A stretch of 63,573 bases of DNA, counting the filler, from an uncultured Methanosarcinales archaeon (GTDB lineage Archaea; Nanobdellota; Nanobdellia; Woesearchaeales; CAZKBD01): the NCBI GenBank assembly GCA_964550945.1. It is 5 parts of 5 records of this genome, joined end to end, with 100 filler letters (N's around TTAATTAATTAA, not from the genome) between each part and the next. Parts side by side here need not be neighbours in the genome. Positions count along the whole stretch, not along the records: positions 53,479 to 63,573 come from CAZKBD010000068.1; 4 more parts are not named here. One strand, given 5' to 3'. Both the position numbers and the translations under genes were made by a program. The notes under the pieces were generated by a model. It ran no database searches. It was not told where the DNA came from and saw nothing but the letters and a program-made list of their open reading frames with translations. The stretch's first letter is position 1. Every line of letters starts with the position of its first letter. Positions 8,324-63,573 of the stretch are shown piece by piece.

Positions 8324-8436
8324 TCACTTAATTATCTCATATTCCTTCACTATGATTATAAGGAACAGCATCAATACAACTGCGCCAACAACAATCCAGG
8401 ACAATCCTGATAGAAATGTATCAGAGGTCATCTTGT
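8324..8436 (-). repeat. Orphan copy of the 3' end of gene 9007-9219
   Basis: 113-bp direct repeat of 9007-9119 with 8 differences; encodes ...VLMLFLIIIVKEYEIIK* versus ...VLILFLIIIVKEYEIIK*. Confidence 0.95.
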
Positions 8437-8478
8437 TTTTCAGATAATTATTTAAATTGCGTTAAGTATATCCCCTAT

Positions 8479-8763
8479 ATGCCTAATATCTTTGAGATTA
8501 GAGACAAGTCGGGAAGAAATATACACCTGTCAAAAGAAAGATGGTCCCATATTCAGAAACATCCTGAGATGTCAGGCCAATTGGAGCAAATCAAAGAAAC
8601 TCTCACCTGTCCAGACACCATTAGTAAATTTGGATATGACTCTAGTGTGCACTTTTATTATAGGTATTGCAAGGGAAGGGGTGATTACCTTTTAATTTCA
8701 GTAAAGTATTTAAATGGGGAGGGGTTCATTATAACTAGTTTTTATACAGATAAAATAAAATGA
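8479..8763 (+). CDS. Putative toxin paired with DUF2283
   Basis: IHLSKERWSHIQKHPEM...IKETLTCPD...GFIITSF; ATGA overlap with the next gene. Confidence 0.7.
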   Translation: MPNIFEIRDKSGRNIHLSKERWSHIQKHPEMSGQLEQIKETLTCPDTISKFGYDSSVHFYYRYCKGRGDYLLISVKYLNGEGFIITSFYTDKIK

Positions 8764-8990
8764 AAGGAGAACTGCAGTTGTATTATGATGAGGAAGGGGA
8801 TTTTCTAGAGATTCAAATAGGCGGTTATACAGAAGGTTCTTTTAAAAATCTAGGGGATGGCATTTTCGAACGATTAGATAAAAAAACAAAAAAGGTTACA
8901 GGGATAGCTGTCATGGGATTTAGAAAAAGAACCGAATCCCTTGGAGATGTGAAAGTTTCTTTACCTGTAGAGATAAAAATTGGTTCTTGA
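8760..8990 (+). CDS. DUF2283-family putative antitoxin
   Basis: YYDEEGDFLEI...GIFERLD...VTGIAV. Confidence 0.8.
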   Translation: MKGELQLYYDEEGDFLEIQIGGYTEGSFKNLGDGIFERLDKKTKKVTGIAVMGFRKRTESLGDVKVSLPVEIKIGS

Positions 8991-9006
8991 ATATAATTTT
9001 TTATAG

Positions 9007-9219
9007 CTATTTGATTATCTCATATTCCTTCACTATTATGATAAGGAATAGTATCAATACAACTGCGCCAACAACAATCCAGGACAATCCTGATAGAAAT
9101 GTATCAGAGGTCATCTTGTAAAGCCCAAAGCCCATTATGACAAATCCAAGCCATAAAAACTTATCCAAAACAAGCATCATTACCTGGAATTCTTCTGATT
9201 GAGTTAATCTTTTTTTCAT
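9007..9219 (-). CDS. Small two-TM membrane protein
   Basis: 70 aa, two hydrophobic helices, GAGGTG RBS upstream. Confidence 0.75.
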   Translation of the reverse strand: MKKRLTQSEEFQVMMLVLDKFLWLGFVIMGFGLYKMTSDTFLSGLSWIVVGAVVLILFLIIIVKEYEIIK

Positions 9220-13515: not shown

Positions 13516-13613
13516 TAGGCAACTAATAACTTAAGGGTTGTAATATCACATTTGCACATACTTTGTAAATAGCTCCTTTTGTTGGAAAAGATAGCAAAAG
13601 TTAAATAGAAGTG

Positions 13614-13957
13614 TTACAAATATGTAATTAATTTGTAAATAATAAGTTACTAATCTGTAAAGATAGTAATTTCCGAACCGAAATATTTATATATAAGTGT
13701 TACAAATATGTGATTAATAATTAGTTAATTTGTTAATAAATTGTTACAGATTAGTAAAAATGGCAGCAACGTTAAAAACCACCCCCTAAACGGGCGGCAT
13801 ATTTTGAGATGGCCTCCTTTTTATTGTGTGGTTTTTAATCGTGCTCAGAAATGATTTACATTTCTGACACACCAAAACCGAAATATTTATATATGAGTGT
13901 TACAAATATGTATACTATTTTACATAAATTAGATATTTAGTTGTTACAAATTTGTAA
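13614..13957. promoter_or_regulatory. Cluster of six TTAC-N6-GTAA-type operator palindromes with duplicated TATA promoter
   Basis: Sites at 13614, 13647, 13700, 13744, 13900, 13944; AACCGAAATATTTATATAT(A/G)AGTGTTACAAATATGT at 13676 and 13876. Confidence 0.75.
13841..13869 (+). repeat. Short hairpin element of the TGCTCA...TGACA family
   Basis: GTGCTCAGAAATG-ATTTA-CATTTCTGACA. Confidence 0.75.
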
Positions 13958-18500: not shown

Positions 18501-20196
18501 AAAGGTAGGAATAGGAACAGCAAGCCCAGGAGCAAAATTGGATGTTGAAACTGCAGCTGGGCAAGGTGGAGCAGCAACAATTGGAAGCTCATCTAATAAT
18601 GCGAGTGGAGATTATGCAGTAGCAATGGGAAACGGTGCACAAGCAACAGGACAAGCATCAACAGCAATGGGATGGGGTGCACAATCATCAGGAATGTATT
18701 CAATAGCTATGGGAAGCAACACACAAGCAATAGGAATGTCCTCAGTTGCAATGGGAGAGAACACAAACGCATTAGGGGTAAGTTCAACAGCAATGGGAAA
18801 GTTAACAAACGCAACAGGAAGTTATTCGACAGCAATGGGATACGACACAAGCGCAACAGTAAACTATGCAACAGCAATGGGATACCAAACAACAGCATCA
18901 GGATTTTACACAACAGCAATGGGATATAATACAACAGCAGACGCAGGAAGTGCTGCGACAGCAATGGGATACAGTACCCGAGCAACAGGAAACTATGCAA
19001 CAGCAATGGGATACCAAACAACAGCATCAATGGCATCCTCGACAGCAATGGGATACAACACAAGCGCAACAGCAAACGATGCAACAGCAATGGGAAGAGG
19101 TACCCGAGCAACAGGAACAGCAGCAACAGCAATGGGATACAACACACAAGCAACACAAATGTATGCAACAGCAATGGGATTCAATACCCAAGCAACAGGA
19201 ACAGCTGCAACAGCAATGGGACAAGCAATAACTGTGTCAGGAATAAACTCAGTAGGAATAGGATTAGATACTACAGCAAGGACAGTTTCTCAGAATAATG
19301 TAATGGTAATCATGGGTGGCAATGTAGGAATAGGAACAACAACCCCAGAATCTGATTTAGAGATTGGAAACGCAACTGCTGATGGCAAGGCCACTCTTAA
19401 GCTAACTGGAGAATCGAGTATACGTCTCTTTGGCTCTGAAATATATGACCAGCCTAGTCGTTTAGGTACAGACCAGATAGGCAACCTAAACTTTAAAGGA
19501 GGTGGTTGTTCAGCTGCTACTGGGAATATAGCGCTAGTAACCTGTAATAATGAGTCAGCTTTATTCATGGAAGGATCGACAGGCCATATAGGGCTAGGAA
19601 CAAAAGATCCTGCATTCTTGCTTGACATGAACACAACAAATGCCCAAGGGCTAAGGATAAGGAATGATGCAGGAAACAAAAACAATGGGCTAGCGATTAT
19701 GACAGGAAGCATTGGAACATGGATAGACATAGTAAACACCTCAAGCCTTGCAGTTTATTCTAATAGTTATGCTAACCTTGGCAACTGGGTAGGTGGAAGA
19801 ACATATATAGTGTATATCAACGGCACTAGTGGGAATATAGGGATTGGTACAGGAAGCCCATTAGGAAAGTTAGACGTCAATGGAACAATTTACCAAAGAG
19901 GCGCATTATTACATGCAGATTATGTCTTTGAAGACAATTACAGCCTAGAATCAATCGAAGAACATTCTGACTATATGTGGAATAACAAGCACTTAAAAGC
20001 AGTTCCAAAGGCAATGAAGGATGAAAGTGGCCAGGATATTGTTAACATCGGAGAGCAGAATAAGGGAATGCTTGAAGAATTAGAAAAAGCGCATGTATAC
20101 ATCGAGCAATTAAATGGTGACCTAAAAGGATTAGAGCAAGAAAACCAAGCCCTGAAGCAAAGGCTCGATAAGATAGAGCAGGAATTAACACGATGA
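15571..20196 (+). CDS. Large secreted fibre/adhesin with YadA-head-like repeats and C-terminal chaperone-like coiled coil
   Basis: Signal peptide, Cys-rich N-terminus, repeated GNVGIGT motifs, 14-aa ATAMGY repeats, ADYVFEDNYSL...LEELEKAHVYIEQLN tail. Confidence 0.85.
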   Translation: MKTKNNHGQKNKKYSFIALSLMMIISLSPLAFAVQEDNPMTSSIIANNNDSSGAFNKITPINKNILTEKSEKITLYAVWRDNPAACPTIYEGGGQQCSQAGEVMCGINPNGNTLQCYQSSNLNPPGTSRTSSSMPTSGLSGGFVIDCGYYDGTAPHCDLGGLYWCNSDSSCYNAHRQTECTANLWSNFTCSDCISGYNNCDTDNNDCEITNGVSCGSNTGTYSSCLTVGSGGTGNCVSTVNSDCDDDDSDTVQSTCNGLNGCEIHPGESCTIIGIGLSGTCQGCGTSGIDSQGNQCNCQGQPVNFQTGIEATYSTSNPLLWGKQYGEGFLINFTNTNGEFWGVNNSGCIVFNDSTVQCSAGVGSGTVADIWVNETGDTMTGNLNLITNANLSVDGNVGIGTATPGEKLQVEGNINATGDICITGGNCLSNVSTGTGDITGVIAGTGLTGGGTSGEITLSANTTYLQQRVTGTCNASNSIRTINADGTVVCEADDVNDADFNATNEIQTLGISGNNITLTSGGSIIAPYATNATYATNATRLAADGTNCGTGNFSTGVDASGNAQGCAAPTLAEADTLQTVTTRGNTTTANITTAGLTVDTNTLYVDSTNNRVGIGTANPNSTLSVGGDGETFASIYSTGKNYGIMAYGTTAGGWFRGSGIGTTGVYAISEGTAIHGEAFGLTATAGYFEKDESGGSGSVLNVWQKNIGDFNSTVLTVRQSGTGNIISASNSGGQVFTLKSDGKVGIGTTTPNVKLEVNGTVNATEVCTTSGKCLSNLGTGTGDITGVIAGTGLSGGGTSGDVTLNANCTAILGHACGTDNVNDADNSTTNEIQTLGISGNNITLSLNGGSVIAPYATNADTVDGQHASAFMNATTDNWVNTTGDTMTGNLNISNNANLTVAGRVGIRNSNPTYSLSIGENVTGGGEIIQLISNSTGISGYIFSSNGNKGGIYYNMNGDLLRFRTNGTDNRLVIDGSGKVGIGTASPGAKLDVETAAGQGGAATIGSSSNNASGDYAVAMGNGAQATGQASTAMGWGAQSSGMYSIAMGSNTQAIGMSSVAMGENTNALGVSSTAMGKLTNATGSYSTAMGYDTSATVNYATAMGYQTTASGFYTTAMGYNTTADAGSAATAMGYSTRATGNYATAMGYQTTASMASSTAMGYNTSATANDATAMGRGTRATGTAATAMGYNTQATQMYATAMGFNTQATGTAATAMGQAITVSGINSVGIGLDTTARTVSQNNVMVIMGGNVGIGTTTPESDLEIGNATADGKATLKLTGESSIRLFGSEIYDQPSRLGTDQIGNLNFKGGGCSAATGNIALVTCNNESALFMEGSTGHIGLGTKDPAFLLDMNTTNAQGLRIRNDAGNKNNGLAIMTGSIGTWIDIVNTSSLAVYSNSYANLGNWVGGRTYIVYINGTSGNIGIGTGSPLGKLDVNGTIYQRGALLHADYVFEDNYSLESIEEHSDYMWNNKHLKAVPKAMKDESGQDIVNIGEQNKGMLEELEKAHVYIEQLNGDLKGLEQENQALKQRLDKIEQELTR
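18610..19230 (+). repeat. 42-nt-period coding tandem repeat
   Basis: Recurrent ACAGCAATGGGA every ~42 nt. Confidence 0.9.
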
Positions 20197-45784: not shown

Positions 45785-47140
45785 TTAGTCTCTTTTCGCC
45801 ATTACATTCCTTTCGTAAGCTGCCACTTCATTAAGGTAACTTATGCCGATCGGGACATTGTGGCTAAGGCAATACATATCCCACACAGCGCCAAAAGGGA
45901 GGGTTGTTCTCTCTTCACTGATAGCTAATTTTGCCATATCACAATCAGCGTTCTCAGCACTTGCTAACACATTATACGGATCTAGATTAGACCAAAGAAG
46001 CGCTTTTCTAGTAGTACGTCCCCCTATAGCAATCATAGCAATTGGGTGTGCTCCAGGTTGGAAATAATCATTGCCATACCACACATCTTGGCTGCGTCCG
46101 CTTCTTCTGACAGAATCAGTTATTGCCCTCAACCAATCAGTTGTCCTAGCTACAAAATCAGAATCCCACTTATCGGGATAACTTATATGGGTCAAGATCC
46201 CTCTTCTTTCTTGAGGGACTAACGCTTGGTCAATCACGTCAGCAAGGTACGCCAAATCAGTCAAGTTATTGAAATGCCCGGTATCTATGCATAACAAAGT
46301 ACCTCTGCTGAGAGAATAGTCACTATAAAATTGATGGCTACCAACAACATAATTTTCAGACCCTAAGCCAAATAATTTCCCCTCAACAGCATCTATAACT
46401 AAGGGGTGTTTTTCTTTTAAACCTTCATCCAAACTAGCCCATAATTGCACCCTAGGTCCATGCCTTTGTACTCGAGCATCGAGAGCGCCATCAGGAATCC
46501 ATACATTTAATACGCATGGTGCTCCTTGTGACTCCCCCATATATTGCGCTATCCTTCGTGTAGCCTTTAATTCTTCTACCCAAAAATATCTTATAGCTGA
46601 ATCCGGACTTGAAAGCGTAAATCCAGTTTGAGCCATCTTATGCCTAAATGGAGAAGGGTTCATATGCAGATGGTATTCATTCTCTTTTGCCCATTCAACC
46701 CATTTTTGAAAATGTTTTGGCTCTCTTTCATTCCTATCCACAAATTTTCCTTCAGTGTCAGCATAAAGGTTATGCACCAACACCGCATTTGGTCCAGGCA
46801 CTAATCTTAAGGCTGCCAGTAAATCACCTAGATGCTCGTCAAGATTTCTAGGCCCTCCTTCTTTTCTTTCAGGAGGCTGTATTCCACCAGCGCTTAGCTG
46901 TGCTGGATTAACAGACGGATCAGAAACTTCATATCCACCAACACTATCTATTGCCCAACAAGGATGCCCAATTCTAACCCTATCAGTTTCTGCTATAGCT
47001 ATATCAGTATCAATACCTAAACTTAAATACCTCTCTTTAGCAGCTTCATAACTCCTTATTACCTTTGTTCCGCTCGGCACACCCTTAATTGCAAGGCTAA
47101 TACCATCTGACTTCAAAGCCTTTAATAAATTAGATTCCAT
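45785..47140 (-). CDS. rhaA: Divergent L-rhamnose isomerase homolog
   Basis: NVWIPDG, DAVEGKLFGLGSE, CIDTGHF, THIS...WDSD, LPFGAVWDMYC. Confidence 0.8.
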   Translation of the reverse strand: MESNLLKALKSDGISLAIKGVPSGTKVIRSYEAAKERYLSLGIDTDIAIAETDRVRIGHPCWAIDSVGGYEVSDPSVNPAQLSAGGIQPPERKEGGPRNLDEHLGDLLAALRLVPGPNAVLVHNLYADTEGKFVDRNEREPKHFQKWVEWAKENEYHLHMNPSPFRHKMAQTGFTLSSPDSAIRYFWVEELKATRRIAQYMGESQGAPCVLNVWIPDGALDARVQRHGPRVQLWASLDEGLKEKHPLVIDAVEGKLFGLGSENYVVGSHQFYSDYSLSRGTLLCIDTGHFNNLTDLAYLADVIDQALVPQERRGILTHISYPDKWDSDFVARTTDWLRAITDSVRRSGRSQDVWYGNDYFQPGAHPIAMIAIGGRTTRKALLWSNLDPYNVLASAENADCDMAKLAISEERTTLPFGAVWDMYCLSHNVPIGISYLNEVAAYERNVMAKRD

Positions 47141-53478: not shown

Positions 53479-53692
53479 ACAAGATATTCTCTTTGTTTAC
53501 CTGTTTTAATAAATCATTTATGATCAGATACATCAAGGAAGTTTTTCCTCCCCGCCTTACCCCCAATATCCCAACTATCTCTTTTCTTTCAACCCATTTT
53601 ATTATTTCTTTTTTTAATTCTCTATCAATGAGATTAAACTGGGTTTCTCCTTGCCACCAGGGGTTCCATTTAGTTAGTATTTCACTGTCCAT
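53479..53692 (-). CDS. AAA_14-type ATPase, 5' part cut by contig end
   Basis: WNPWW...GVRRGGKTS. Confidence 0.85.
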
Positions 53693-53844
53693 ATCAGATT
53701 GTAATCGAACAATATTTATAAATCTTTCGATTATAATCGAATGATTATGTTAATAGCCTGGCTGTAAAACACAAACTTTCACTTTTCAAAGAAATGTTTA
53801 TAAACACATCCGTATTTGCATACTGCGTTGTAAGGGTGATTTAT

Positions 53845-55971
53845 ATGGAAAAATATGATAGTAGTTCAGGTGAATCAGGAAGTTATAATACATTACGAAC
53901 TGTAGCTCAGTCTTTAGTTGGCCATTTAAAAGATATTTCTAGAGTAGGGGTTATCACTGGAGCTGGCATCGCAGCACTTATAGGCGGATATTCATTGCCT
54001 GCGCATGCATCCAGGACTGATGCTCCGATGATAGCAGCAGTTAGTAGTATGGCAAATTCAATTATTCCTAATTTAGGTACTGATTCCGATGGTGATGGAT
54101 TAAGCGACGATTTCGAAAATGATGCCTTAGGAATTAATGGTTACACAACTAATCCAAATAGCGTTTCTTCTAATGGTTACGGGTTTCATGATAATATCTG
54201 GACTCATGGAACTGGTCCCGGAGTAGGCTACAATCTTATGGACTACAGCCAAAATGTAAGCGCAGTTGCTGCCAAAGCAGGAACTGCTGATATTCCAGTC
54301 TGCTGGAGCAGTGATGGAACAGCCCTTTATTTCATGAGGTCAAATACTGATGGAACAACTCCTCAGGTCTGGAAAGTCACAAGGGGAGATCCAGCCTCTG
54401 CAGCTAGGATTGCTGATAATGCAGGGGTTGCATATGGATTAAACCGCGGTGCACCTAATTTTACCAATGATGGAATCTACGTTCACTTTCGCACAAGTTC
54501 AGAACCAGGCAACTATGGAGGAGATATCTATGAAGTTTTTGATAATGCAACTGATCCTAGGTTAGTTCTGCAATTTCCAGATGGAAGAAAAGCAGGAAGC
54601 CTCGATGCCAGGACTTACTCGGCAATTGGAGATGTTATCCTAACTCAAGTTTATGAATCTAATAACTCTTCAGCGCATATTGCTGCATTTAGAATTGAAG
54701 GAGGGGTTGCTAATTTAGATAGCGAGAACAAGGTTGCAGATGCATTAGAAGGCTCTTACCTTTCTAATGCTTGGGCTCTTTTTCCTATTATTAGTCCAAG
54801 TGGCCAAAATCTAATATGGACCAATGTAGGGTATTACGGAGATCCTGATTATCCTTATATGAATGCAGTTCTTGTTAGCACTAACAATGACCTTGAGTCT
54901 AAGATATCAACATCAAGTTATTATATCCACGCCCATGACACTTCTGGTTCTAGAGTTTTAGATACAAAACCTGGCTTGTTAGGGGTTGGTTGTTTAGGTG
55001 AAGGTACATATTTAGTTACTGATGACAGATCACTTCTTTCTATTGGTGCAGTCAGGGAGGGAACGTATGATATACTAAACCCTTTAAATTTTTCAGGAAC
55101 TGATTTTGATATTAGGATTATTAACGAAACCACAAGCCAACAGACGTTTATTAGAGCTATGGGCAACCAGTATTTTCCTGCGCTAAACAAGCCAGATAAT
55201 ATTATTGCGTATACTGAAACTGATGGGGCAAGCTTTGCCCTTAAGTTGGCTAGTTTAGAAACAAGGGTGTACATTAGTTCAAGTGCTGGGGACGGCGTTG
55301 ATGAAAGAATTGAGTATGTTGACTCAAGCGGCTCTCTGAGAACAATTGAGCAAGGAACTCCAGTTATTACTCCTTTTGGTGAATTAACACTTACAACAGT
55401 GCCTTCTATTGACTTAACAGCTACTATTGCAGAACTAGAGCCCATTGCAAGCTTGCATAACGGGCCTGATGGAACAGTGTTTGGAACAGCAAAGCAATTA
55501 GGCCACGAGACTGTTGAAAAGCCGATTAATCAGTATATTCTTGATAAATTAGGCGCAACTATTAATGATGTGGCTGTTTATGACAATTTAGGGATCCCTA
55601 TAGATGTCATATCCACAAATCCAGCTATTCCTTCTGTTACTGTCCATGTAAACCATTATTCGGATATTATATTTGGTGTTAGAAGCGCATCAAACCCCGA
55701 TTCAGACCATGATGGCTTGGCAAACATCGTTGAAACCAACACAGGAGTTTATGTCAGCCCAACAAACACAGGGACAGACCCTAACAATCCGGATACTGAT
55801 AACGATGGAGTCAATGATGGAATAGAAGTTCAATTTGGATACAACCCTTGCGACTTAAACGATACACCGCAACTTCCATCTGCATTGAATACCGGATTAG
55901 CAGCGCTGGCCGCAGCATTAGCTGGAGCTGGAGCATTCGCTTTAAGGCGCAGGGAAAGCACAAGGAATTGA
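53845..55971 (+). CDS. Secreted surface protein with TolB-like region, Ca-binding DxDxDG repeats and C-terminal membrane anchor
   Basis: Signal ending AHA; DSDGDGLSD, WSSDG, DSDHDGL, DTDNDGVNDG; LPSALNTGLAALAAALAGAGAFALRRR tail. Confidence 0.8.
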   Translation: MEKYDSSSGESGSYNTLRTVAQSLVGHLKDISRVGVITGAGIAALIGGYSLPAHASRTDAPMIAAVSSMANSIIPNLGTDSDGDGLSDDFENDALGINGYTTNPNSVSSNGYGFHDNIWTHGTGPGVGYNLMDYSQNVSAVAAKAGTADIPVCWSSDGTALYFMRSNTDGTTPQVWKVTRGDPASAARIADNAGVAYGLNRGAPNFTNDGIYVHFRTSSEPGNYGGDIYEVFDNATDPRLVLQFPDGRKAGSLDARTYSAIGDVILTQVYESNNSSAHIAAFRIEGGVANLDSENKVADALEGSYLSNAWALFPIISPSGQNLIWTNVGYYGDPDYPYMNAVLVSTNNDLESKISTSSYYIHAHDTSGSRVLDTKPGLLGVGCLGEGTYLVTDDRSLLSIGAVREGTYDILNPLNFSGTDFDIRIINETTSQQTFIRAMGNQYFPALNKPDNIIAYTETDGASFALKLASLETRVYISSSAGDGVDERIEYVDSSGSLRTIEQGTPVITPFGELTLTTVPSIDLTATIAELEPIASLHNGPDGTVFGTAKQLGHETVEKPINQYILDKLGATINDVAVYDNLGIPIDVISTNPAIPSVTVHVNHYSDIIFGVRSASNPDSDHDGLANIVETNTGVYVSPTNTGTDPNNPDTDNDGVNDGIEVQFGYNPCDLNDTPQLPSALNTGLAALAAALAGAGAFALRRRESTRN

Positions 55972-55972
55972 G

Positions 55973-57370
55973 TTATCCTTTCTTTAATATTTTATCTATA
56001 TCTTTCAAATCAAAGCAACTAACCTTTTTGCCATTATATTCTTTAATCTTTTTAAGAAAGGATTTAGAAAATATAGCGTAGCTTTCAATTCTATTGTTGC
56101 TCTTCCATTCTACTCGTTTTGATTTTTCTTCTAATTCTTTCAGAATTTCTCTTGCGTCAACACGCTCTTTCCATTTACACTCAACCAAGAGGATGTTATG
56201 GCTCTTTTCGTCGAGTGCTACGCAATCTATTTCCGTATTTTTGTTCCACCATCTTCCAAACCTGTTATATGGCCCTATTTTGGTTAGGGGAATTAGTTCC
56301 AATACTAACTTCTCAAACTTCCTGCTTATGTAGCTGTTTATTTCCTGTTTAGCAGCTTCTAGAACATTTTTTGTTTCCCCCATTTCCAACTCTTGCCTGT
56401 ATAGATATACAAATCTAAACCAAAAGTCAAAAAAGTTGTCCTTCAGCAAGTATAATGACCCTTTTGACTTTAATTTTGATTTATAATTCTCTGTCACAGG
56501 CATTATCCGTTCAATTATCCCTAAGCTCTCAAGTGTATAAAGATATTTAGATAACAGGCTCTTATCCAGTCTTGTCCGGTCATAAATATCGCTGAATTTT
56601 GTTAGTCCACCTGCAATTGATGAGATTATAGACATATAATTGGAAGGGTCTCTAAATTCCTCTCTTAACAATATCTCAATCTCTTCATATAAGAATTCCC
56701 CCTTGGAGAATATCCTATCCCGTATATTCTCAAGCACATCTTTATCCTGAGAGAACTTTACTAAATAGCCAGGTATGGTGTCTAAACAAGAGTACAGCTT
56801 AATTATCTCTTCTGCACTATATTTTGGAAAAAATTTTTTTAGGCAGGGCGCATCCATTTTTTCTATCTTCCACTGTCCAGTCCTCCTGCCATATAACGGA
56901 CTTTTGAGATCTAAAGTATATTTTTCCATCATGCTTATGCTGGAACCGCATAAAATAAGCATTATTTCAGAGAATTTTAATTTTGAGTCCCATTTATCCT
57001 GTAATATTGAGATAATCTCTGGGAATCTTTCTGCTAAAAATGGAAATTCATCAAAAACAAGAACTATTCTGCCTCTTGCCTTTTCAGCTACATAGTCAAA
57101 AATTCCATCCCAATTTGTAAATGGGTTGTTTAGTATATTTTTGTCATTAAAATTCTCAATTAGAAGATTATTGAACCTTTTTAAAGTACCCTCTCTTGAC
57201 TCAAGCCTCCCAATAAAATACATGTACTTCTTGCCTTTGCAAAAGTTCAATATAAGCTCTGTTTTGCCTATCCTTCTTCTTCCATAAAGTATTATTAATT
57301 CAGCCTCTTTCGAAGAAAATCTTTCTTCCAAAAATTTAAGTTCCCTTTCTCTGTTGATAAATGTCATCAT
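55973..57370 (-). CDS. Archaeal ATPase (ATPase_2 + DUF234-like PD-(D/E)xK tail)
   Basis: FINREREL, YGRRRIGKT, FDEFP, PLYGRRT, EIDCV...VECKW. Confidence 0.92.
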   Translation of the reverse strand: MMTFINRERELKFLEERFSSKEAELIILYGRRRIGKTELILNFCKGKKYMYFIGRLESREGTLKRFNNLLIENFNDKNILNNPFTNWDGIFDYVAEKARGRIVLVFDEFPFLAERFPEIISILQDKWDSKLKFSEIMLILCGSSISMMEKYTLDLKSPLYGRRTGQWKIEKMDAPCLKKFFPKYSAEEIIKLYSCLDTIPGYLVKFSQDKDVLENIRDRIFSKGEFLYEEIEILLREEFRDPSNYMSIISSIAGGLTKFSDIYDRTRLDKSLLSKYLYTLESLGIIERIMPVTENYKSKLKSKGSLYLLKDNFFDFWFRFVYLYRQELEMGETKNVLEAAKQEINSYISRKFEKLVLELIPLTKIGPYNRFGRWWNKNTEIDCVALDEKSHNILLVECKWKERVDAREILKELEEKSKRVEWKSNNRIESYAIFSKSFLKKIKEYNGKKVSCFDLKDIDKILKKG

Positions 57371-57453
57371 AAGTATATACTCATGATTCAACTATTTAAA
57401 TGTTTCGGTTTAAGATAGGCATGATTATCAGATAAATACGCCAAATATTGGCA

Positions 57454-57677
57454 TTTATGTCAGCCCAACAAACACAGGGACAGACCCTAACAATCCGGAT
57501 ACTGATAACGATGGAGTCAATGATGGAATAGAAGTTCAATTTGGATACAACCCTTGCGACTTAAACGATACACCAGAACTTCCATCTGCATTGAATACCG
57601 GATTAGCAGCGCTGGCCACAGCATTAGCTGGAGCTGGAGCATTTGCCTTAAGGCGCAGGGAAAGCACAAGGAATTAA
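57454..57677 (+). repeat. Orphan 3'-end copy 2 of the surface protein gene
   Basis: 224-bp direct repeat of 55748-55971 with about 6 differences. Confidence 0.97.
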
Positions 57678-57742
57678 GCCTTTTTTTCTGATTATTAAAT
57701 CATAATGAGCATATCTTAAAGTATTAGAAGCAGCTAATTTTT

Positions 57743-58501
57743 TTACTTGGACAATATAGTATCAAAAACCCTCTTGATTTCTTCAGCATCATGGCCTATC
57801 TGAATTCCAGCTTTGGAGTAATCTTCCCTGTTTATGATTTGATGACATTTTTTGAGATTCTGCTTTTGGACATATTTTAGAAGGTTGATTTTCTCAACAT
57901 TTAATCCAGTATACCAAGCTAAGGAGAATATATCACAAATGTCTTTTATCCGCTTATGCTCCTTATCCCTGCAAGGAAGAGAGTTTATCTTCATTGCCAA
58001 CAGAAGCTCTGGTTTTGGAAGTAATAATTTCTTTTCAAATTCAGTCAGGAGTATATAGCCATTTTTCTCAAAAACAAACTTAAGCAAAGGCTCGTCAATT
58101 GGATCAAATCCAAATATTTTCCTAAAATCCTTAGGAACCTTATCCACAATCAAATCCACACACATTGGAAATATGAAATGAGCAGGGATTATCTCTCCAT
58201 CATTTATTTCCTCTTCAGTTTCAGTATAAATCTCTTTAACAAACCTAAAACTTAACGGCTTAAAATTGAGATTTTCTACCAGCGTTTTAATTGTCTGTGC
58301 TAATGTGGATTGCTTGCCTATATTAAACCCTAAATCAATATCCCTGCTCCCCAAATAGGGCCTTCCTTGCGCTTTCTCAAATCTGTTATTAACATGAAAG
58401 AAAACCGCCCAGCCACCTAGTATGCAGATTGGCTCTTTTAGACTGTTGATTACATCTTTAAGATATCTGTATGATGTCCTTGTCTCGAATTCTTTGTACA
58501 T
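57743..58501 (-). CDS. AbiEii-like nucleotidyltransferase toxin
   Basis: ILGGWAV, SRDIDL, LLAMK, KRIKDICD. Confidence 0.8.
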   Translation of the reverse strand: MYKEFETRTSYRYLKDVINSLKEPICILGGWAVFFHVNNRFEKAQGRPYLGSRDIDLGFNIGKQSTLAQTIKTLVENLNFKPLSFRFVKEIYTETEEEINDGEIIPAHFIFPMCVDLIVDKVPKDFRKIFGFDPIDEPLLKFVFEKNGYILLTEFEKKLLLPKPELLLAMKINSLPCRDKEHKRIKDICDIFSLAWYTGLNVEKINLLKYVQKQNLKKCHQIINREDYSKAGIQIGHDAEEIKRVFDTILSK

Positions 58502-59070
58502 TATATCCTTTTCATCAGCATTTCAGCTGCCTCTTGGCATGGTCCGCCTTCATTAGTAAGATCTACTATAAGCTGAGGTACTGAAACTATAAACATATCA
58601 TTTATCTTTCTTTTGCCGTACATAACCTGTTCATCAGTTATTATAATCCTGAAATTTCCCCTCCCATATAACCCCCTTTTAGTTATCAGTCTATGCCATT
58701 GTTTTAAATCAGCTTCTTTTATGTATATGTCTACTCGTGAAGGAAAAAGGTGGTGTTGCACAATGTTTTCAGCCTGATAAGTTGTTAGAGCATAATCTAA
58801 TTTAGATACTTTAAGAAGTTCCAATGGTTCTTTTACCATATAACCCCTGAACCTCTTTGGCTTCTTTGAGATGGTGATCCAATAACCTATAAGTTTTTTC
58901 CTGTCAATAGGCGTTGTATATCTAACAAGCTTCTTCTTTTGTAGCTCTTTCAGGAAAAGAATAACCCACTGTCTGGTACACCCTGCACGCTTTGAGAGGT
59001 CATTCTTGCTTAAAGCTTCCTCGCTGTTAAGCAACACTCTTAATATCCTTTCTCGTTTATCGCCTCGCAT
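58501..59070 (-). CDS. wHTH + AbiEi-like antitoxin
   Basis: N-terminal HTH; YALTTYQA...VDIYI...VSVPQLIVDL...EAAE. Confidence 0.78.
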   Translation of the reverse strand: MRGDKRERILRVLLNSEEALSKNDLSKRAGCTRQWVILFLKELQKKKLVRYTTPIDRKKLIGYWITISKKPKRFRGYMVKEPLELLKVSKLDYALTTYQAENIVQHHLFPSRVDIYIKEADLKQWHRLITKRGLYGRGNFRIIITDEQVMYGKRKINDMFIVSVPQLIVDLTNEGGPCQEAAEMLMKRI

Positions 59071-59103
59071 ATACCTGTAAGTATAGGGACTTGTATATAA
59101 ATG

Positions 59104-59121
59104 TTACTTACATGTAAGTAA
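59104..59121. promoter_or_regulatory. Perfect 18-bp palindrome, likely operator of the antitoxin
   Basis: TTACTTACATGTAAGTAA next to a TATA-like sequence. Confidence 0.65.
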
Positions 59122-59161
59122 TATAGAGGATTAATAAACGATAGTTCGGTCAGAGATAATT

Positions 59162-59366
59162 TGTCAAAAACCACTCTTCAGAGATGAGTAGTATGATTGT
59201 AGCATAGCTAGCATCATTCAAGTGGTTCATCAAAAATCTTTGATTTTTGACTGTGCTCAGAAATGCAAAGCATTTCTGACATTTGAGCATGCTCAGAAAC
59301 TTTCCATATCACAAAGGAAGATTGGCTTTCAGCCACCAGTTAGAAACTGGTGGAAAGTTTCTGACA
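59162..59366. mobile_element. Nest of three hairpin elements
   Basis: TGTCAAAAACCACT...AGTGGTT[54-bp insert 59228-59281]TTTGAGCATG, head-to-head with CATGCTCAGAAACTTTCCA...TGGAAAGTTTCTGACA. Confidence 0.75.
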
Positions 59367-59398
59367 TTTCTATTGCAACTATTTTTGTAATTGGCTTA

Positions 59399-59569
59399 GA
59401 CAATGATGGAGTTCTAACAAGAGATGAACTAACTTTTGGTTATAACCCCTATGACCAAAATGATGTTCCAATCTTGCTAACATCAACACCTATCGGATTA
59501 GCAGCGCTGGCCACAGCATTAGCTGGAGCAGGGGCATTCGCCTTAAGGCGCAGGGAAACAAGAAATTAA
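59399..59569 (+). repeat. Orphan 3'-end copy 3 (diverged)
   Basis: Encodes DNDGV...FGYNP...GLAALATALAGAGAFALRRRETRN*. Confidence 0.92.
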
Positions 59570-59674
59570 ACCTGTTTAACTGGATTATTTTTTCTTTGAA
59601 TATATCTTCTGAGAGCGCAGTAATTGGCCCAAAAATAGAAATATTTATAAAGTATAACTCACATTATACTTATT

Positions 59675-60880
59675 ATGATTATAGATAGGCCAAATGAGAT
59701 AAAAAGAATAAATGAAGTAAACAAATGGATTTTAGTATATGGCAGGAGAAAGACCGGAAAAACATTTATTATTAGCAACTTTATCAGGCATGATGAATAT
59801 TTTTTTGTTAAAACAAATAAAACTATCCTGACTAAGAAAAACGAGTCTTTAAGTTACGATACTTTTATTGAGCTCTTGAAGAGAGACCTTAATGATGGGA
59901 AAGTTGTTGTAGTTGACGAATTTCATAGGTTACTTGACGACTTTTTTGATTTCCTCCATTTTACAGAAAAAAAAGGAAAGCTAATACTAATCTCATCAAC
60001 TTTGTTTCTATCGAAAAAATTGATATCCAGCAAATCTGCGCTTTTGGGCTTATTTACAGAAATCCCTATCGGATTGATAAGCTTGGAAGATTCTTTAAAA
60101 TCCCTAAAAAGGCTTAATTTTACTAAGAAGGATAAATTGGAATTGGCAATTTTATTAAAAGAGCCTATAGCAGCAGAGTATATTGACGAGAAGAAAACAG
60201 CCAGAGAAACAATTAGCACGATTCTTGCCGGATCAGTTAGGACAATCCCCGCATTAATAGGCGAGATATTTAGTGAAGAAGCAAGGGAAATCTCTGGGGT
60301 ATACGAAGGCGTATTGAGGGCCATTGCAATCGGTAAAATTAATTCTGGAGAAATATCAAGCTACCTTTTTTCAAAAAAGCTCATCAAAAAAGATGATCCT
60401 AGCATAATTCAGCAATATTTGAATAACCTTCTTCTATTTGGAATTATAAAAAGAATAAAACTTTTCAATAAAAAGCGGTTTGTGTATAAGTTAGTATCGC
60501 CTTTATCCAGGATCTATTATTATGCTGATGAAAAATATAATATCTCTGAAAGAAGAAATAGTGAGGAAGAATTAAAGAGAATCATTGATGAATTAATGCC
60601 CAGAATTGTTGAGGATTCTGTCAGAGAACATCTTGCTGAGAAATACGGCTTAATAGAAAGCATAATAGAAGAGAAAGACTATGATATTGACGCATGCCTA
60701 TTGAAATTTAAGTCTATTGAACTGGCAGTTGAGATCAAATGGAAGAAGATTGATAGAGAGGATATCAGAAAAAGCGAGGAAACCCTATTGAAAATCAAAT
60801 CAAAAGGAAGGATTATTTTTGTACCTGACAAAAAGGGCATAAAATCAAATATTGAGCTTTTTGACGTTGATGATCTCTGA
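59675..60880 (+). CDS. Archaeal ATPase with PD-(D/E)xK-like tail
   Basis: YGRRKTGKT, VVDEFH, DIDA...VEIKW. Confidence 0.88.
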   Translation: MIIDRPNEIKRINEVNKWILVYGRRKTGKTFIISNFIRHDEYFFVKTNKTILTKKNESLSYDTFIELLKRDLNDGKVVVVDEFHRLLDDFFDFLHFTEKKGKLILISSTLFLSKKLISSKSALLGLFTEIPIGLISLEDSLKSLKRLNFTKKDKLELAILLKEPIAAEYIDEKKTARETISTILAGSVRTIPALIGEIFSEEAREISGVYEGVLRAIAIGKINSGEISSYLFSKKLIKKDDPSIIQQYLNNLLLFGIIKRIKLFNKKRFVYKLVSPLSRIYYYADEKYNISERRNSEEELKRIIDELMPRIVEDSVREHLAEKYGLIESIIEEKDYDIDACLLKFKSIELAVEIKWKKIDREDIRKSEETLLKIKSKGRIIFVPDKKGIKSNIELFDVDDL

Positions 60881-60922
60881 CTTATTCACGCATGATTTTC
60901 TAGGAAGCAGCCCAAAAATAGA

Positions 60923-60997
60923 GGATTAGCAGCTTTGGCATTGATGTCAGCAGCAGGAGCATTCGCCTTAAGGCGCAGGGAAAGCACAAGAAATTAA
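60923..60997 (+). repeat. Orphan 3'-end copy 4 (short)
   Basis: GGATTAGCAGC...GGAGCATTCGCCTTAAGGCGCAGGGAAAGCACAAGAAATTAA. Confidence 0.9.
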
Positions 60998-61049
60998 ATC
61001 CATCAATCATATCCTTTTTTATTTTAATCTATCTTGTATTATACTCCTC

Positions 61050-62363
61050 TTAAATTCCATCCCCTAATAGCCATTTCCACAGCGGAATGAATTTAACCTT
61101 TCTTTTTATTCCAAACCATTCTAAACTTTCTTCTCCAGAATACTCTTGATTAATCACCAAAAGATTATTGCATTTCAAGTCCTTACTTGCTTTTAATAAA
61201 GCCTTAATCTCTCTTTTTTTTGTATCAGGATCAGTAATATCATAACAAACCTGTATTAACTGATTTATTTTTGCGGCGCCCTTTATAACAAAATCAACCT
61301 CTTCTTTTTCCATATTCTTCCAATAGTAACACTCTTTTTTTTGCCTTTTTAGCTCAATCGCAACAATATTCTCATAAAGCCTTCCTAAATTATTTAAAAA
61401 CTTTGTTGAAATTGAATTAATAAAGGCATTGTCTATAAAATATATTTTCTTGGGATATTGCATCTGATCTTTTATTTTATAAGAAAAGATAGGCAAGCTA
61501 AATGCAAAATAGGAGTTCTCGATGTAAGAAATATATTTTTGCAATGTGGATTTACCAATTTCATAACCTAAACTTTTAAGATTATTGTAACTTTTGCTTA
61601 TAGAGTATTTTTTTGAGTCAAGAAGCAGTTTTAGGAGAGCTTTTAAGGATTCTTCATTTTTTACATTATACCTCTCAACAATATCTCTTTTTATAACAGT
61701 AGAATAATAAGACTGTGCTAATTCGAATTTTTTATTTTCGTCTATAAGAACTGCTTCAGGCAACCCTCCATAGGTGAGGTATTCTGTAAGTGCTTTAAGA
61801 ATAAGGGGCTTTTCTTTCTCTGAATAGTCTAATATTTTAAAGTCAAAATTAAGTTTCTTAAAATTTAAGAACTCTTTAAAGGAAAGAGGAAACATCTTAA
61901 TTTCTAAGAATCTCCCCCTTAATTCTGTTGGTATTTCATCTTCAGACATTCTTGAAGAAGAACCAGAGACAAAGATCCTTATATTTTGATTATCATATGT
62001 TCTTCTAAGCCACTTGCTCCAATTAGGGATATTATGCAATTCATCTAAAAATAAGTACTTAATCTTTTTATTGAATATCTCATCTGTAACTGGGAGCAAT
62101 CTGCTTAAGAATTCTGTCTTTAGAGGTATTCTTTCATCTTCAAAATTAATGAGGACAACCTCTTCACGAGAGTTAGATTTAAGAAGTTCGTTTATTATGC
62201 CATATAGAATATATGTTTTCCCGACTCTTCTAAAACCATTTAATACAATTATCTTATTAATCTTCATAGTAAGATAATCTTGAATATTAACTTCTCTGGG
62301 GATTATTGCTGGAATGTCTTTCCCTTTCCATTCAGCGAGTATTGTTTTTATTGTTTTATCCAT
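61050..62363 (-). CDS. AAA_14/DUF4143 ATPase
   Basis: GFRRVGKT, LDELH, SGSSS, GGLPE, EVDF, PLWKWLL. Confidence 0.92.
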   Translation of the reverse strand: MDKTIKTILAEWKGKDIPAIIPREVNIQDYLTMKINKIIVLNGFRRVGKTYILYGIINELLKSNSREEVVLINFEDERIPLKTEFLSRLLPVTDEIFNKKIKYLFLDELHNIPNWSKWLRRTYDNQNIRIFVSGSSSRMSEDEIPTELRGRFLEIKMFPLSFKEFLNFKKLNFDFKILDYSEKEKPLILKALTEYLTYGGLPEAVLIDENKKFELAQSYYSTVIKRDIVERYNVKNEESLKALLKLLLDSKKYSISKSYNNLKSLGYEIGKSTLQKYISYIENSYFAFSLPIFSYKIKDQMQYPKKIYFIDNAFINSISTKFLNNLGRLYENIVAIELKRQKKECYYWKNMEKEEVDFVIKGAAKINQLIQVCYDITDPDTKKREIKALLKASKDLKCNNLLVINQEYSGEESLEWFGIKRKVKFIPLWKWLLGDGI

Positions 62364-62450
62364 GGTACAATTTTAGTATACTATTGTCCTATTTAAATCT
62401 TTTGGTTTTTTTGGGCATTGGAAAGGAAGATATACCTTTTTCAACAAAAT

Positions 62451-62562
62451 AGGCTATGCAATGAAAAATAATAACCCTCGGGATGGCACAGTATTAGGAA
62501 AAGCATTTGACTTTTGTACAGAAGAAGAATGCAGGATACCTATAATTGTTGCGTTGAGCTAG
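62451..62562 (+). repeat. Orphan 3' end of a fibre/chaperone (peptidase G2-like) gene, copy 1
   Basis: GYAMKNNNPRDGTVLGKAFDFCTEEECRIPIIVALS*. Confidence 0.8.
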
Positions 62563-62639
62563 AAGATTCAAATATAGAAAAAGATATAAATATAAGGGCT
62601 TTCTTCAGCTATGTTGTAAATGATTATACCTAATGGCAA

Positions 62640-62927
62640 ATGATTAAGATAAACTATACAGAGCATCTAAAATTACGGCTGAAAATCAGAGCCATACCTG
62701 AAGAATATCCAAAGAAGATTTACATGGATCCTGAACAAAAATTTTTTGATAATATCGAGAAAACATTAATAGCCACAAAAAAACTTTATTATAATAATAA
62801 ATTAAGAAATATGATGATAGCATATGAAGAAAGGGATGGGGGGATCGATATTGTAACGATACACCCAATAAGCGAAGAAAAAATAATAAATAGGCTAATG
62901 AGCCAGAGGTGGACAAAAAATGAATAG
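62640..62927 (+). CDS. DUF4258-like putative toxin
   Basis: YTEHLKLRLKIRAI...IVTIHP...RW. Confidence 0.72.
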   Translation: MIKINYTEHLKLRLKIRAIPEEYPKKIYMDPEQKFFDNIEKTLIATKKLYYNNKLRNMMIAYEERDGGIDIVTIHPISEEKIINRLMSQRWTKNE

Positions 62928-63135
62928 GTACAATTACGACAAAAAATCAGACTCTCTTTTCATCTACTTAAAAGAAGGAGAGGAAGCGGATTTTGAAGAG
63001 ATAGCCCCGGGTATTAACATAGAATTGAATAAAGATAATGAAGTTATAGGGGTAGAAATCCTTAAAGCATCACGCTTCAGTGCTAGTTTGAAGAGCCAAA
63101 TAGCAAAAAAACATATAACTAAGATACCAGCATAA
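62920..63135 (+). CDS. DUF2283-family putative antitoxin
   Basis: YDKKSDSLFI...EIAPGINIE...IGVEILKAS. Confidence 0.85.
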   Translation: MNRYNYDKKSDSLFIYLKEGEEADFEEIAPGINIELNKDNEVIGVEILKASRFSASLKSQIAKKHITKIPA

Positions 63136-63190
63136 TCTTAATGCTACTTCTTTTCTGTTAGAACTAGAAGAGGCCCCCTTGCTCAAATCC

Positions 63191-63302
63191 AGGCTATGCA
63201 ATGAAAAACAATGAGCCAAAAGTCGGCTCAATCGTAGGAAAAGCGTTTGACTTCTGCGATAAAGAAGAATGCAGGATATTGATGTTTGTGGCTTTGAGTT
63301 AA
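63191..63302 (+). repeat. Orphan 3' end of a fibre/chaperone gene, copy 2
   Basis: GYAMKNNEPKVGSIVGKAFDFCDKEECRILMFVALS*; same 112-bp span as 62451-62562. Confidence 0.8.
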
Positions 63303-63352
63303 GCGTTAGTTAATAGCCATTTCCAAAGCGGAATGAATTCAATTTTTTTGCC
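63299..63352 (-). pseudogene. Orphan 3' end of a DUF4143 ATPase gene
   Basis: GKKIEFIPLWKWLLTNA*, compare KVKFIPLWKWLL at the end of 61050-62363. Confidence 0.8.
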
Positions 63353-63487
63353 TGTCAAGAACCACCCGTCACAGATGGTGCATAGATGGTATAGTCATCT
63401 ACTGCACTAGGAAACGTTAGTTTCCGTTGGTGGAATGACGCGCTTAGCGTCCTTTCCTAAATGATTGGTTGGTGGTTCTTGAGCATG
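63353..63487 (-). mobile_element. 135-bp multibranch hairpin element
   Basis: CATGCTCAAGAACCACC...GGTGGTTCTTGACA with internal stems. Confidence 0.75.
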
Positions 63488-63573
63488 AACTGAGAAATTT
63501 GCTTTGCAAATTTCTGGCGGTATATAAAGTATAGAATCCTTTTTCCATAAGAAATAAAACCCGCTAACTATTT

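Follow-up and report, generated by a model that had tools for sequence, protein, structure and literature searches.

Orphan gene ends between stacked cassettes in a Woesearchaeales genome suggest integrase-free insertion behind a surface-protein gene

Arrays in which an intact gene is followed by displaced copies of its own end have been described in bacteria. Here, we compare with them an array of toxin-antitoxin (TA)-like and ATPase genes behind a surface-protein gene of an uncultured Woesearchaeales archaeon (assembly GCA_964550945.1). The window, the whole stretch of 63,573 nt that was analysed, joins five contigs by N linkers, and the array lies at positions 53479-63573, which are one whole contig (C68, 10,095 nt) of this genome (G000, 1.97 Mb, 92% complete).

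The C-terminal displacement of rhs genes (Jackson et al. 2009, PMC2935791) is similar in that an intact gene is followed by orphan gene ends, and in the proposed route, where a circle is excised between repeats, transferred and integrated by a single crossover without an integrase. On C68, an intact gene is likewise followed by in-frame orphan 3' ends that appear to derive from other alleles. In rhs, however, the payload is the variable tip and the repeat is a core fragment, whereas the C68 repeat is the conserved gene end. No variable toxin tip with a cognate immunity gene was found on C68, where the tail is a membrane anchor and the cargo is unrelated. Across the genome, the payload consists of unrelated TA and ATPase genes, and many unrelated genes are affected, at 3' and 5' ends, in an archaeon.

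Insertion of restriction-modification genes with long target duplication (Furuta, Abe and Kobayashi 2010, PMC2853133) also places selfish or defence genes within direct repeats of variable length above 30 bp, with inserts below 20 kb, no mobility genes and an enrichment over average genes. Our genome differs in its TA and ATPase cargo, in copies that look like diverged alleles rather than fresh duplicates, and in its stacked arrays; no restriction or modification genes were present in the C68 inserts or in the cargo examined at other loci. The repeat screen in that paper retained no archaeal case, and that system is defined by comparison with empty sites, whereas no relative holds the C68 locus. 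The effector-immunity arrays of the Vibrio T6SS (type VI secretion system), attributed to homology-facilitated illegitimate recombination (HFIR; Kirchberger et al. 2017, PMC5361080), likewise arose in order, by insertions that recurred at a single gene without an integrase, and their authors compare them with integrons. Those arrays retain immunity genes of one system, in contrast to the whole independent cassettes of C68, each with a TATA-like site. Finally, archaeal integrons and clusters of attC sites lacking integrases (CALINs; bioRxiv 10.1101/2022.02.06.479319), with attC sites reported for Nanoarchaeota, are also cassette arrays with TA genes in archaea; on C68 the cassettes face both ways and are separated by remnants of coding sequence that have neither the fold nor the boxes of attC, and IntI is absent. 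We found no DPANN paper on such scars in the literature searched, which left most subscription journals outside its reach. As the mechanism has already been proposed in bacteria, the surprise is limited, and what is added here is a stacked array, a genome-wide enrichment at TA and ATPase genes and a pooled test of the copies as alleles.

The array and the genes within it are as follows.

53845-55971, plus strand: surface protein of 708 aa with a signal-like N-terminus, a low-confidence beta-propeller, TSP3-like repeats, a C-terminal membrane anchor and a basic tail
55748-55971, plus strand: c0, tail copy inside the surface gene (sequence comparison)
55973-57367, minus strand: cargo A, ATPase_2 and DUF234 (Pfam; PADLOC PDC-S27-like), with its own TATA-like site
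57454-57677, plus strand: c1, orphan tail, 218/224 nt identical to c0
57743-58501, minus strand: cargo B, toxin-like AbiEii-like nucleotidyltransferase (weak Pfam match, E 0.0065; Atlas look-alikes at 0.96-0.97)
58501-59070, minus strand: cargo B, antitoxin-like helix-turn-helix and AbiEi-like protein (Pfam, Atlas look-alikes)
59399-59569, plus strand: c2, mosaic orphan tail of 171 nt with a diverged linker and a near-identical anchor
59675-60880, plus strand: cargo C, 401-aa AAA_14-type ATPase (Pfam)
60923-60997, plus strand: c3, short orphan tail of 75 nt with a different anchor allele
61050-62363, minus strand: unit D, AAA_14 and DUF4143 ATPase (Pfam; PADLOC PDC-S01-like)

With a probability of roughly 55%, the three orphan tails are the scars of three successive insertions by single homologous crossover, without a dedicated integrase, and each inserted small cassette likely carried a short surface-gene end from a diverged relative. 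The reading draws, among other things, on the presence of four in-frame tail copies, the self-contained TA and ATPase units between them and the sharp edges of the copies. A first-pass annotation of this sequence had described the three recurrences of the tail, with an ATPase-DUF234 gene, an AbiEi/AbiEii-like pair and a second ATPase between the copies, a third ATPase after them and no recombinase nearby. The repeats are real, the cargo is as it stated, and C68 carries no integrase. Its idea of repeated insertion at one gene end by a homology-driven route, with old tails pushed downstream and defence-like genes as cargo, is supported as well.

The first 121 nt of c0 and c1 are identical, and all six differences fall within the last 103 nt, changing 2/73 residues. 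The tail c2, which had been called diverged, is so in its 5' part (55/95 identical columns against c1), but not evenly: it is a mosaic, with 72/80 columns identical in the anchor-coding part. The longest identical run between c1 and c2, 36 nt, lies where the diverged part gives way to the near-identical one, and c2 and c3 have an identical run of 24 nt. The anchor reading frame and its stop are kept in all tail copies, and c2 and c3 code for clearly different, once functional tails. No further copy of the surface-gene tail was found anywhere else in the genome. Swapping of anchors, as the first-pass annotation had envisaged, is literally likely, but the change is small (the two residues between c0 and c1) and looks like a by-product. 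Weak similarity extends beyond the stop codon (p 0.013 for c1/c2 and 0.007 for c2/c3, six tests). A convergent gene like cargo A, whose 3' end would form part of the repeats, was considered and rejected, with p 0.10 (c0/c1) and 0.17 (c0/c3) against shuffles. A TATA-like hexamer precedes the start codon by 31-34 nt in each of the four units. Relatives of cargo A, at 31-66% identity, occur in several archaeal phyla, and cargo C is matched in 5/300 other genomes of the order at E<=1e-20.

Using a gene-end scan, we found the same arrangement of gene end, cargo and orphan copy of the end at about a dozen other genes of this genome. The view of the first-pass annotation, of one special hotspot at a surface gene, is not supported, as the same scar occurs at housekeeping genes throughout the genome: the parent genes include SerRS, an ArgB-type kinase, RibB, ThiI, a LeuD-like gene and a giant surface gene. 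Orphan 3' ends belong to argB, serS and ribB, to genes of 633 and 333 aa and to a 70-aa gene (9007-9219), and mirror-image 5' orphans to thiI, leuD and a 941-aa gene; contigs C4, C37 and C45 hold further repeat-flanked cassettes without an intact parent in view. The cargo at these loci is mostly HicAB, HepT/MNT, ParE, PIN, YhcG or AAA_14, and once a cation/H+ exchanger. The example within the window is:

8328-8436, minus strand: orphan 3' end of the 70-aa gene, 95% identical to the in-gene copy at 9011-9119 (whole example, 8328-9119)

This pair of copies brackets a PBECR2 nuclease-like gene and a 76-aa open reading frame (ORF). Overall, repeats bracket 16/55 TA or ATPase Pfam hits lying away from contig ends (14/53 without the C68 array) versus 35/1431 other genes, and 12/1264 among genes more than 1.5 kb from such a hit. 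For this count 69/78 Pfam hits were taken, the other nine falling below the cut-off, running off a contig end or belonging to large conserved proteins. The resulting odds ratio of 16 is overstated, as neighbouring hits are not independent. Upstream of the 941-aa gene, three orphan 5' ends form a mirror-image array (G000:C1:28394-31636, L121), with YhcG, a PIN-like ORF and MNT pairs lying between the copies, and a 6.8-kb island between 110-nt repeats (G000:C7:11421-18481, L124) holds ParE-like, PIN-like, RadC, YhcG, GMT-wHTH and radical-SAM genes.

We then compared the divergence of 13 parent/orphan pairs with a simulation of in-place duplication, in which the orphan evolves neutrally, the gene is fully constrained and the transition bias (kappa) is 2-8. 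The pooled proportions of differing sites were 0.24 at silent (pS) and 0.054 at non-silent positions (pN), with 0.42/0.022 for serS and 0.31/0.019 for argB; c2 and c3, which are more diverged and still in frame, were left out of the silent-site pools. The 109 nt differences of the 13 pairs cause 42 aa differences, against 58-64 expected for in-place duplication (p about 0.001, the lowest value that 1000 runs can give), and the nine nearest or single pairs have 14 against 27-30 simulated. Because the differences are mostly silent, the paired copies appear to be diverged alleles. Both would have been working gene ends for most of their history, as expected if one of them came from a relative; alternatively, rounds of excision and re-entry may let both copies alternate in the gene. 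Together, the silent-site bias and the mosaic c2 favour tails drawn from different functional alleles. If the copies thus stem from different lineages, the scars record transfer between relatives rather than local duplication.

The pattern was also sought in other genomes. In the order, using 80 regions of 24 genomes around MNT and ATPase hits, with a conserved protein of 600 aa and any hits close to a contig end set aside, 5/89 hits were bracketed (3 under a strict gene-end rule) versus 3/578 control genes (2 strict). In G058 the strict cases concern a GatB/GatE-family gene, in G059 a nucleotidyl transferase gene and an rmlD-like gene, each with MNT or HEPN/MNT cargo. Among 36 loci with cargo-A relatives, 6/25 eligible ones were bracketed, clearly so at L164, L182 and L186. 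In L164, from a Micrarchaeota metagenome-assembled genome (MAG), 4/4 copy differences are silent. L186, from an Aenigmatarchaeota MAG, has five gene-tail copies spaced by ATPase, PIN and MNT units; 0/9 scanned ORFs there are integrases, and no intact parent lies in the 17 kb of the locus. The repeats of L183 may be whole paralogues, and those of L178 and L197 were judged doubtful by eye. The scar pattern is therefore real beyond our genome and far denser within it.

Under the favoured reading, a cassette flanked by two gene-end copies would pop out of the donor genome as a circle or, as another option, a linear fragment would be trimmed and circularised. The cassette would pass to a related cell, where RadA, which is present in this genome, would cross over within the common arm, leaving the gene intact with a donor-derived end and pushing the resident end behind the cargo. 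Recurrence at the intact gene would make the unit nearest to it the newest. The needed identity would be supplied by the anchor-coding stretch common to otherwise different surface genes, as in the runs shared by c2 with c1 and c3, and addiction or an anti-virus benefit would guard against renewed loss of the cassettes. We infer the circles, the uptake and the involvement of RadA. The mosaic structure of c2, with the 36-nt run where divergence stops, fits a crossover within the anchor-coding stretch. This circle model is the one proposed for rhs (PMC2935791). PMC3240628 describes duplications of 109-950 bp in most recombinants, attributed to single crossover of recircularised donors.

Several observations weigh against this reading. 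The gene-interior half is the more identical one in 9/11 simple pairs (28 versus 72 mismatches, counted half by half and entered by hand; the six excluded older array pairs mostly show the opposite trend), a bias which a plain circle model does not predict and which could have come about by gene conversion or because the joint lies upstream of the crossover. Repeats are absent from 39/55 TA and ATPase hits, and the pattern is rarer in other genomes of the order than here. We observed no empty allele, circle or donor, and no relative carries the locus; the serS-kae1 order is kept in 0/28 relatives, where neither kae1 nor an orphan is found at that place (29 serS loci were examined, and that of G131 was left out). 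Neither of the uptake genes DprA and ComEC was found in the 92% complete genome. Lastly, circle integration cannot be told from one-sided recombination of a linear donor by sequence alone.

We favour single-crossover circle integration over this linear-donor route, which is the strongest of the alternatives and yet rather unlikely. By HFIR, a linear donor carrying a gene allele and downstream cargo would undergo one homologous crossover, its far end would join illegitimately within the resident gene, and the last 75-224 nt of the resident would remain as an orphan. Such a process, proposed for the T6SS immunity arrays (PMC5361080), would produce the same layout and the same silent-site bias, agrees with orphans of varying length whose edges lack a motif and, if the illegitimate joint lay upstream of the crossover, would yield an identical gene-interior stretch such as the 121 nt of c0 and c1. 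However, it requires an extra, earlier recombination for the mosaic c2 and does not account for all orphans being short when the parents measure 0.2-4.7 kb. In PMC3240628, 56/60 clones were duplications and not true HFIR.

Two further explanations seem improbable to a like degree. Several whole surface genes with accessory genes could have stood in tandem and decayed by deletions to their 3' ends, which would account for c2 and c3 encoding clearly different, once functional tails; at L183, paralogous gene starts do alternate with ATPase-DUF234 genes. This fails to explain the scar at the normally single-copy serS, argB, ribB and thiI, and the edge of c1, a copy 97% identical to c0, is sharp. 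Alternatively, the cargo could insert with strict long target duplication, breaking the target, perhaps by a nuclease domain of the ATPase, with repair copying the target in place. Architecture and repeat lengths match those in PMC2853133. The DUF234 part of cargo A also contains a D...E-x-K stretch. We take this stretch to resemble those of PD-(D/E)XK nucleases. The deficit of amino-acid differences speaks against in-place copying, which survives only if both copies alternate as the gene end, and the cargo types are unrelated, one being a cation/H+ exchanger.

Insertion by an integron or by another site-specific recombinase acting in trans is very unlikely. It is suggested by the look of the array, by TA cargo, which is common in archaeal integrons according to bioRxiv 10.1101/2022.02.06.479319, and by the single tyrosine recombinase (PF00589) of the genome, a short 215-aa protein encoded on another contig (C24:17504-18007, L021). 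That protein scores 67 bits against a cut-off of 265 for integron integrases, so that no IntI was found in the 92% complete genome; its best NCBIfam match is archaeal XerA (130 of 220 bits), below every cut-off, and no serine resolvase was found in the genome. The tails form no hairpin, as the z values of five stretches (-1.05 to +0.62) show no improvement over shuffled sequence, and the lone RYYYAAC...GTTRRRY pair in 55.6-61.1 kb sits inside the AbiEi-like gene, so the tails lack the attC motif. The cassettes are not co-oriented, A and B lying on the minus strand and C on the plus strand. Judged as an integrative element, the array has no integrase of its own or nearby and no specific attachment core visible to the eye, but it does carry a replacement gene end. 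Across the dozen unrelated targets, inspection of 22 repeat pairs by eye, without a formal motif search, showed no motif common to their edges, and because of this a trans-acting recombinase has no support. The term integron-like, used in the first-pass annotation, fits the look of the array but is not supported as a statement about its family.

To assess the assembly, we used Logan contigs from 4/7 listed runs of groundwater metagenomes, these being the runs that share most words with the genome; the small-share runs X6 and X7 were not counted as habitat evidence, and stretches without cover carry no weight. In X1, a surface-gene contig and a cargo-A-promoter contig both stop 30 nt into the repeat, a further contig runs from c1 through cargo B, and another (60670-61237) spans c3. 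A contig of X3 joins c0 to the end of cargo A, and one of X5, from another study, joins the cargo-A promoter to c1, so that both entries into the 224-nt repeat are present. A loose end in X3 before 59379 fails, by hand reading, to continue the c2 frame. The tandem order is supported, short of proof because no listed Logan contig spans two tail copies or c2, and no repeat-to-repeat joint was seen among these contigs, which break at the repeat. The least probable explanation of all, a tandem misjoining of strain variants that differ in the genes behind the surface gene, gains from these breaks and from X1 and X3 possibly being the source sample, but it is opposed by both repeat entries, by the contig across c3, by similar depths (about 2-7) of surface gene, A and B in X1, by a divergence of c2 and c3 too great for collapse and by the same architecture in other assemblies.

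Small archaea hold many scattered TA and ATPase genes without visible means of movement, and the scars offer a countable footprint of one route. A tentative extension of the favoured reading would be a DPANN mobilome free of integrases, in which TA and ATPase-nuclease cassettes pass between species as small circles with gene-end arms of 40-230 nt. Equally tentatively, integration by RadA would build integron-sized stacks, the surface anchor would serve as a universal plug, and defence islands would grow without a mobile-element enzyme. If circles were confirmed, integron-looking arrays could come from host recombination alone, and one should expect repeat-flanked cassettes to show polymorphism within populations and wrong joins in assemblies.

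The remaining features of C68 are these.

53479-53692, minus strand: AAA_14 ATPase gene (Pfam AAA_14), present as its 5' piece (aa 1-71) and cut by the contig end
59159-59372, no strand: genome-wide multi-hairpin repeat, unrelated to the tails, with matches on >20 other contigs and a DNA fold z of -7.6
62451-62562, plus strand: first orphan 3' end belonging to a 1567-aa gene of contig C41, from which it differs at 17 nt and, over 36 codons, at 4 aa
62640-63135, plus strand: two-gene cassette of an unannotated 95-aa ORF and DUF2283, putatively TA-like by its arrangement
63178-63353, plus strand: second orphan 3' end belonging to the C41 gene and, at 63311-63342, the 3' end of an AAA_14 gene in convergent orientation

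The array from c0 to c3 is probably nested in a larger one, since the right end of C68 has these two orphans of the giant C41 gene and contig C41 ends inside the AAA_14 gene that opens C68. The end of C41 matches aa 72-433 of the paralogue D; it is thus probably the remainder of that gene, although an end-to-end reading of the join needs a small gap. This second, larger set of tail copies was missed in the first-pass annotation. Its remark that copies shorten with distance from the gene holds within the inner array (224, 171 and 75 nt) but is no rule, as the giant-gene orphans lengthen outwards, from 112 to 176-179 nt.

The hairpin repeat at 59159-59372 has a high depth in the metagenomes and ends 27 nt before c2, which it may have cut. 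A second such repeat lies at 63353-63517; both are genome-wide, abut orphan edges, are abundant in metagenomes and have a similar GTCAA..AACCAC start, and neither has an Rfam match at E<=0.1.

The AlphaFold model of the surface protein has a pLDDT of 45 and TolB/propeller matches, so the putative beta-propeller is a low-confidence lead only. Full-length homologues at ~30% identity are P0027, P0030 and P0041, one of their clusters being named Nanoarchaeota. In 60 relatives, the protein was matched through its TSP3 repeats only; the tail gave two marginal matches in 400 genomes of the order, and a family profile two weak ones in 400 genomes of the class. DNA patterns of the locus found nothing in viral or metagenome contigs, nor did protein-based scans find the locus in relatives. 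The tail scores below the IPTL-CTERM cut-off of 20.5 (13.0 for c0 and 15.2 for c2), and likewise below those of other CTERM models. The surface tail (55700-55971) is 57-63% identical to the tails of P0013, P0025, P0060, P0074 and P0111, proteins with unrelated N-termini and a shared plan of TSP3-like repeats, proline linker, anchor and basic end, which we presume to resemble Hydrogenedentota surface proteins. P0013 and P0025 have a near-identical tail and more diverged bodies, and P0167, a family member of 601 aa, ends without the repeat-anchor tail.

Elsewhere in the window, a long surface gene contains ten copies of a unit at 42-nt spacing (18614-19263), and several related intragenic repeats occur at 16.7-19.9 kb and 32.8-33.3 kb. 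Contig C51 opens with four AT-rich repeats of 63 nt (13596-13944) that share the common core TGTTACAAATATGT. Finally, a 451-aa gene at 45785-47140, presumably encoding a sugar isomerase, stands among pantothenate/CoA genes with wording unlike that of its neighbours.

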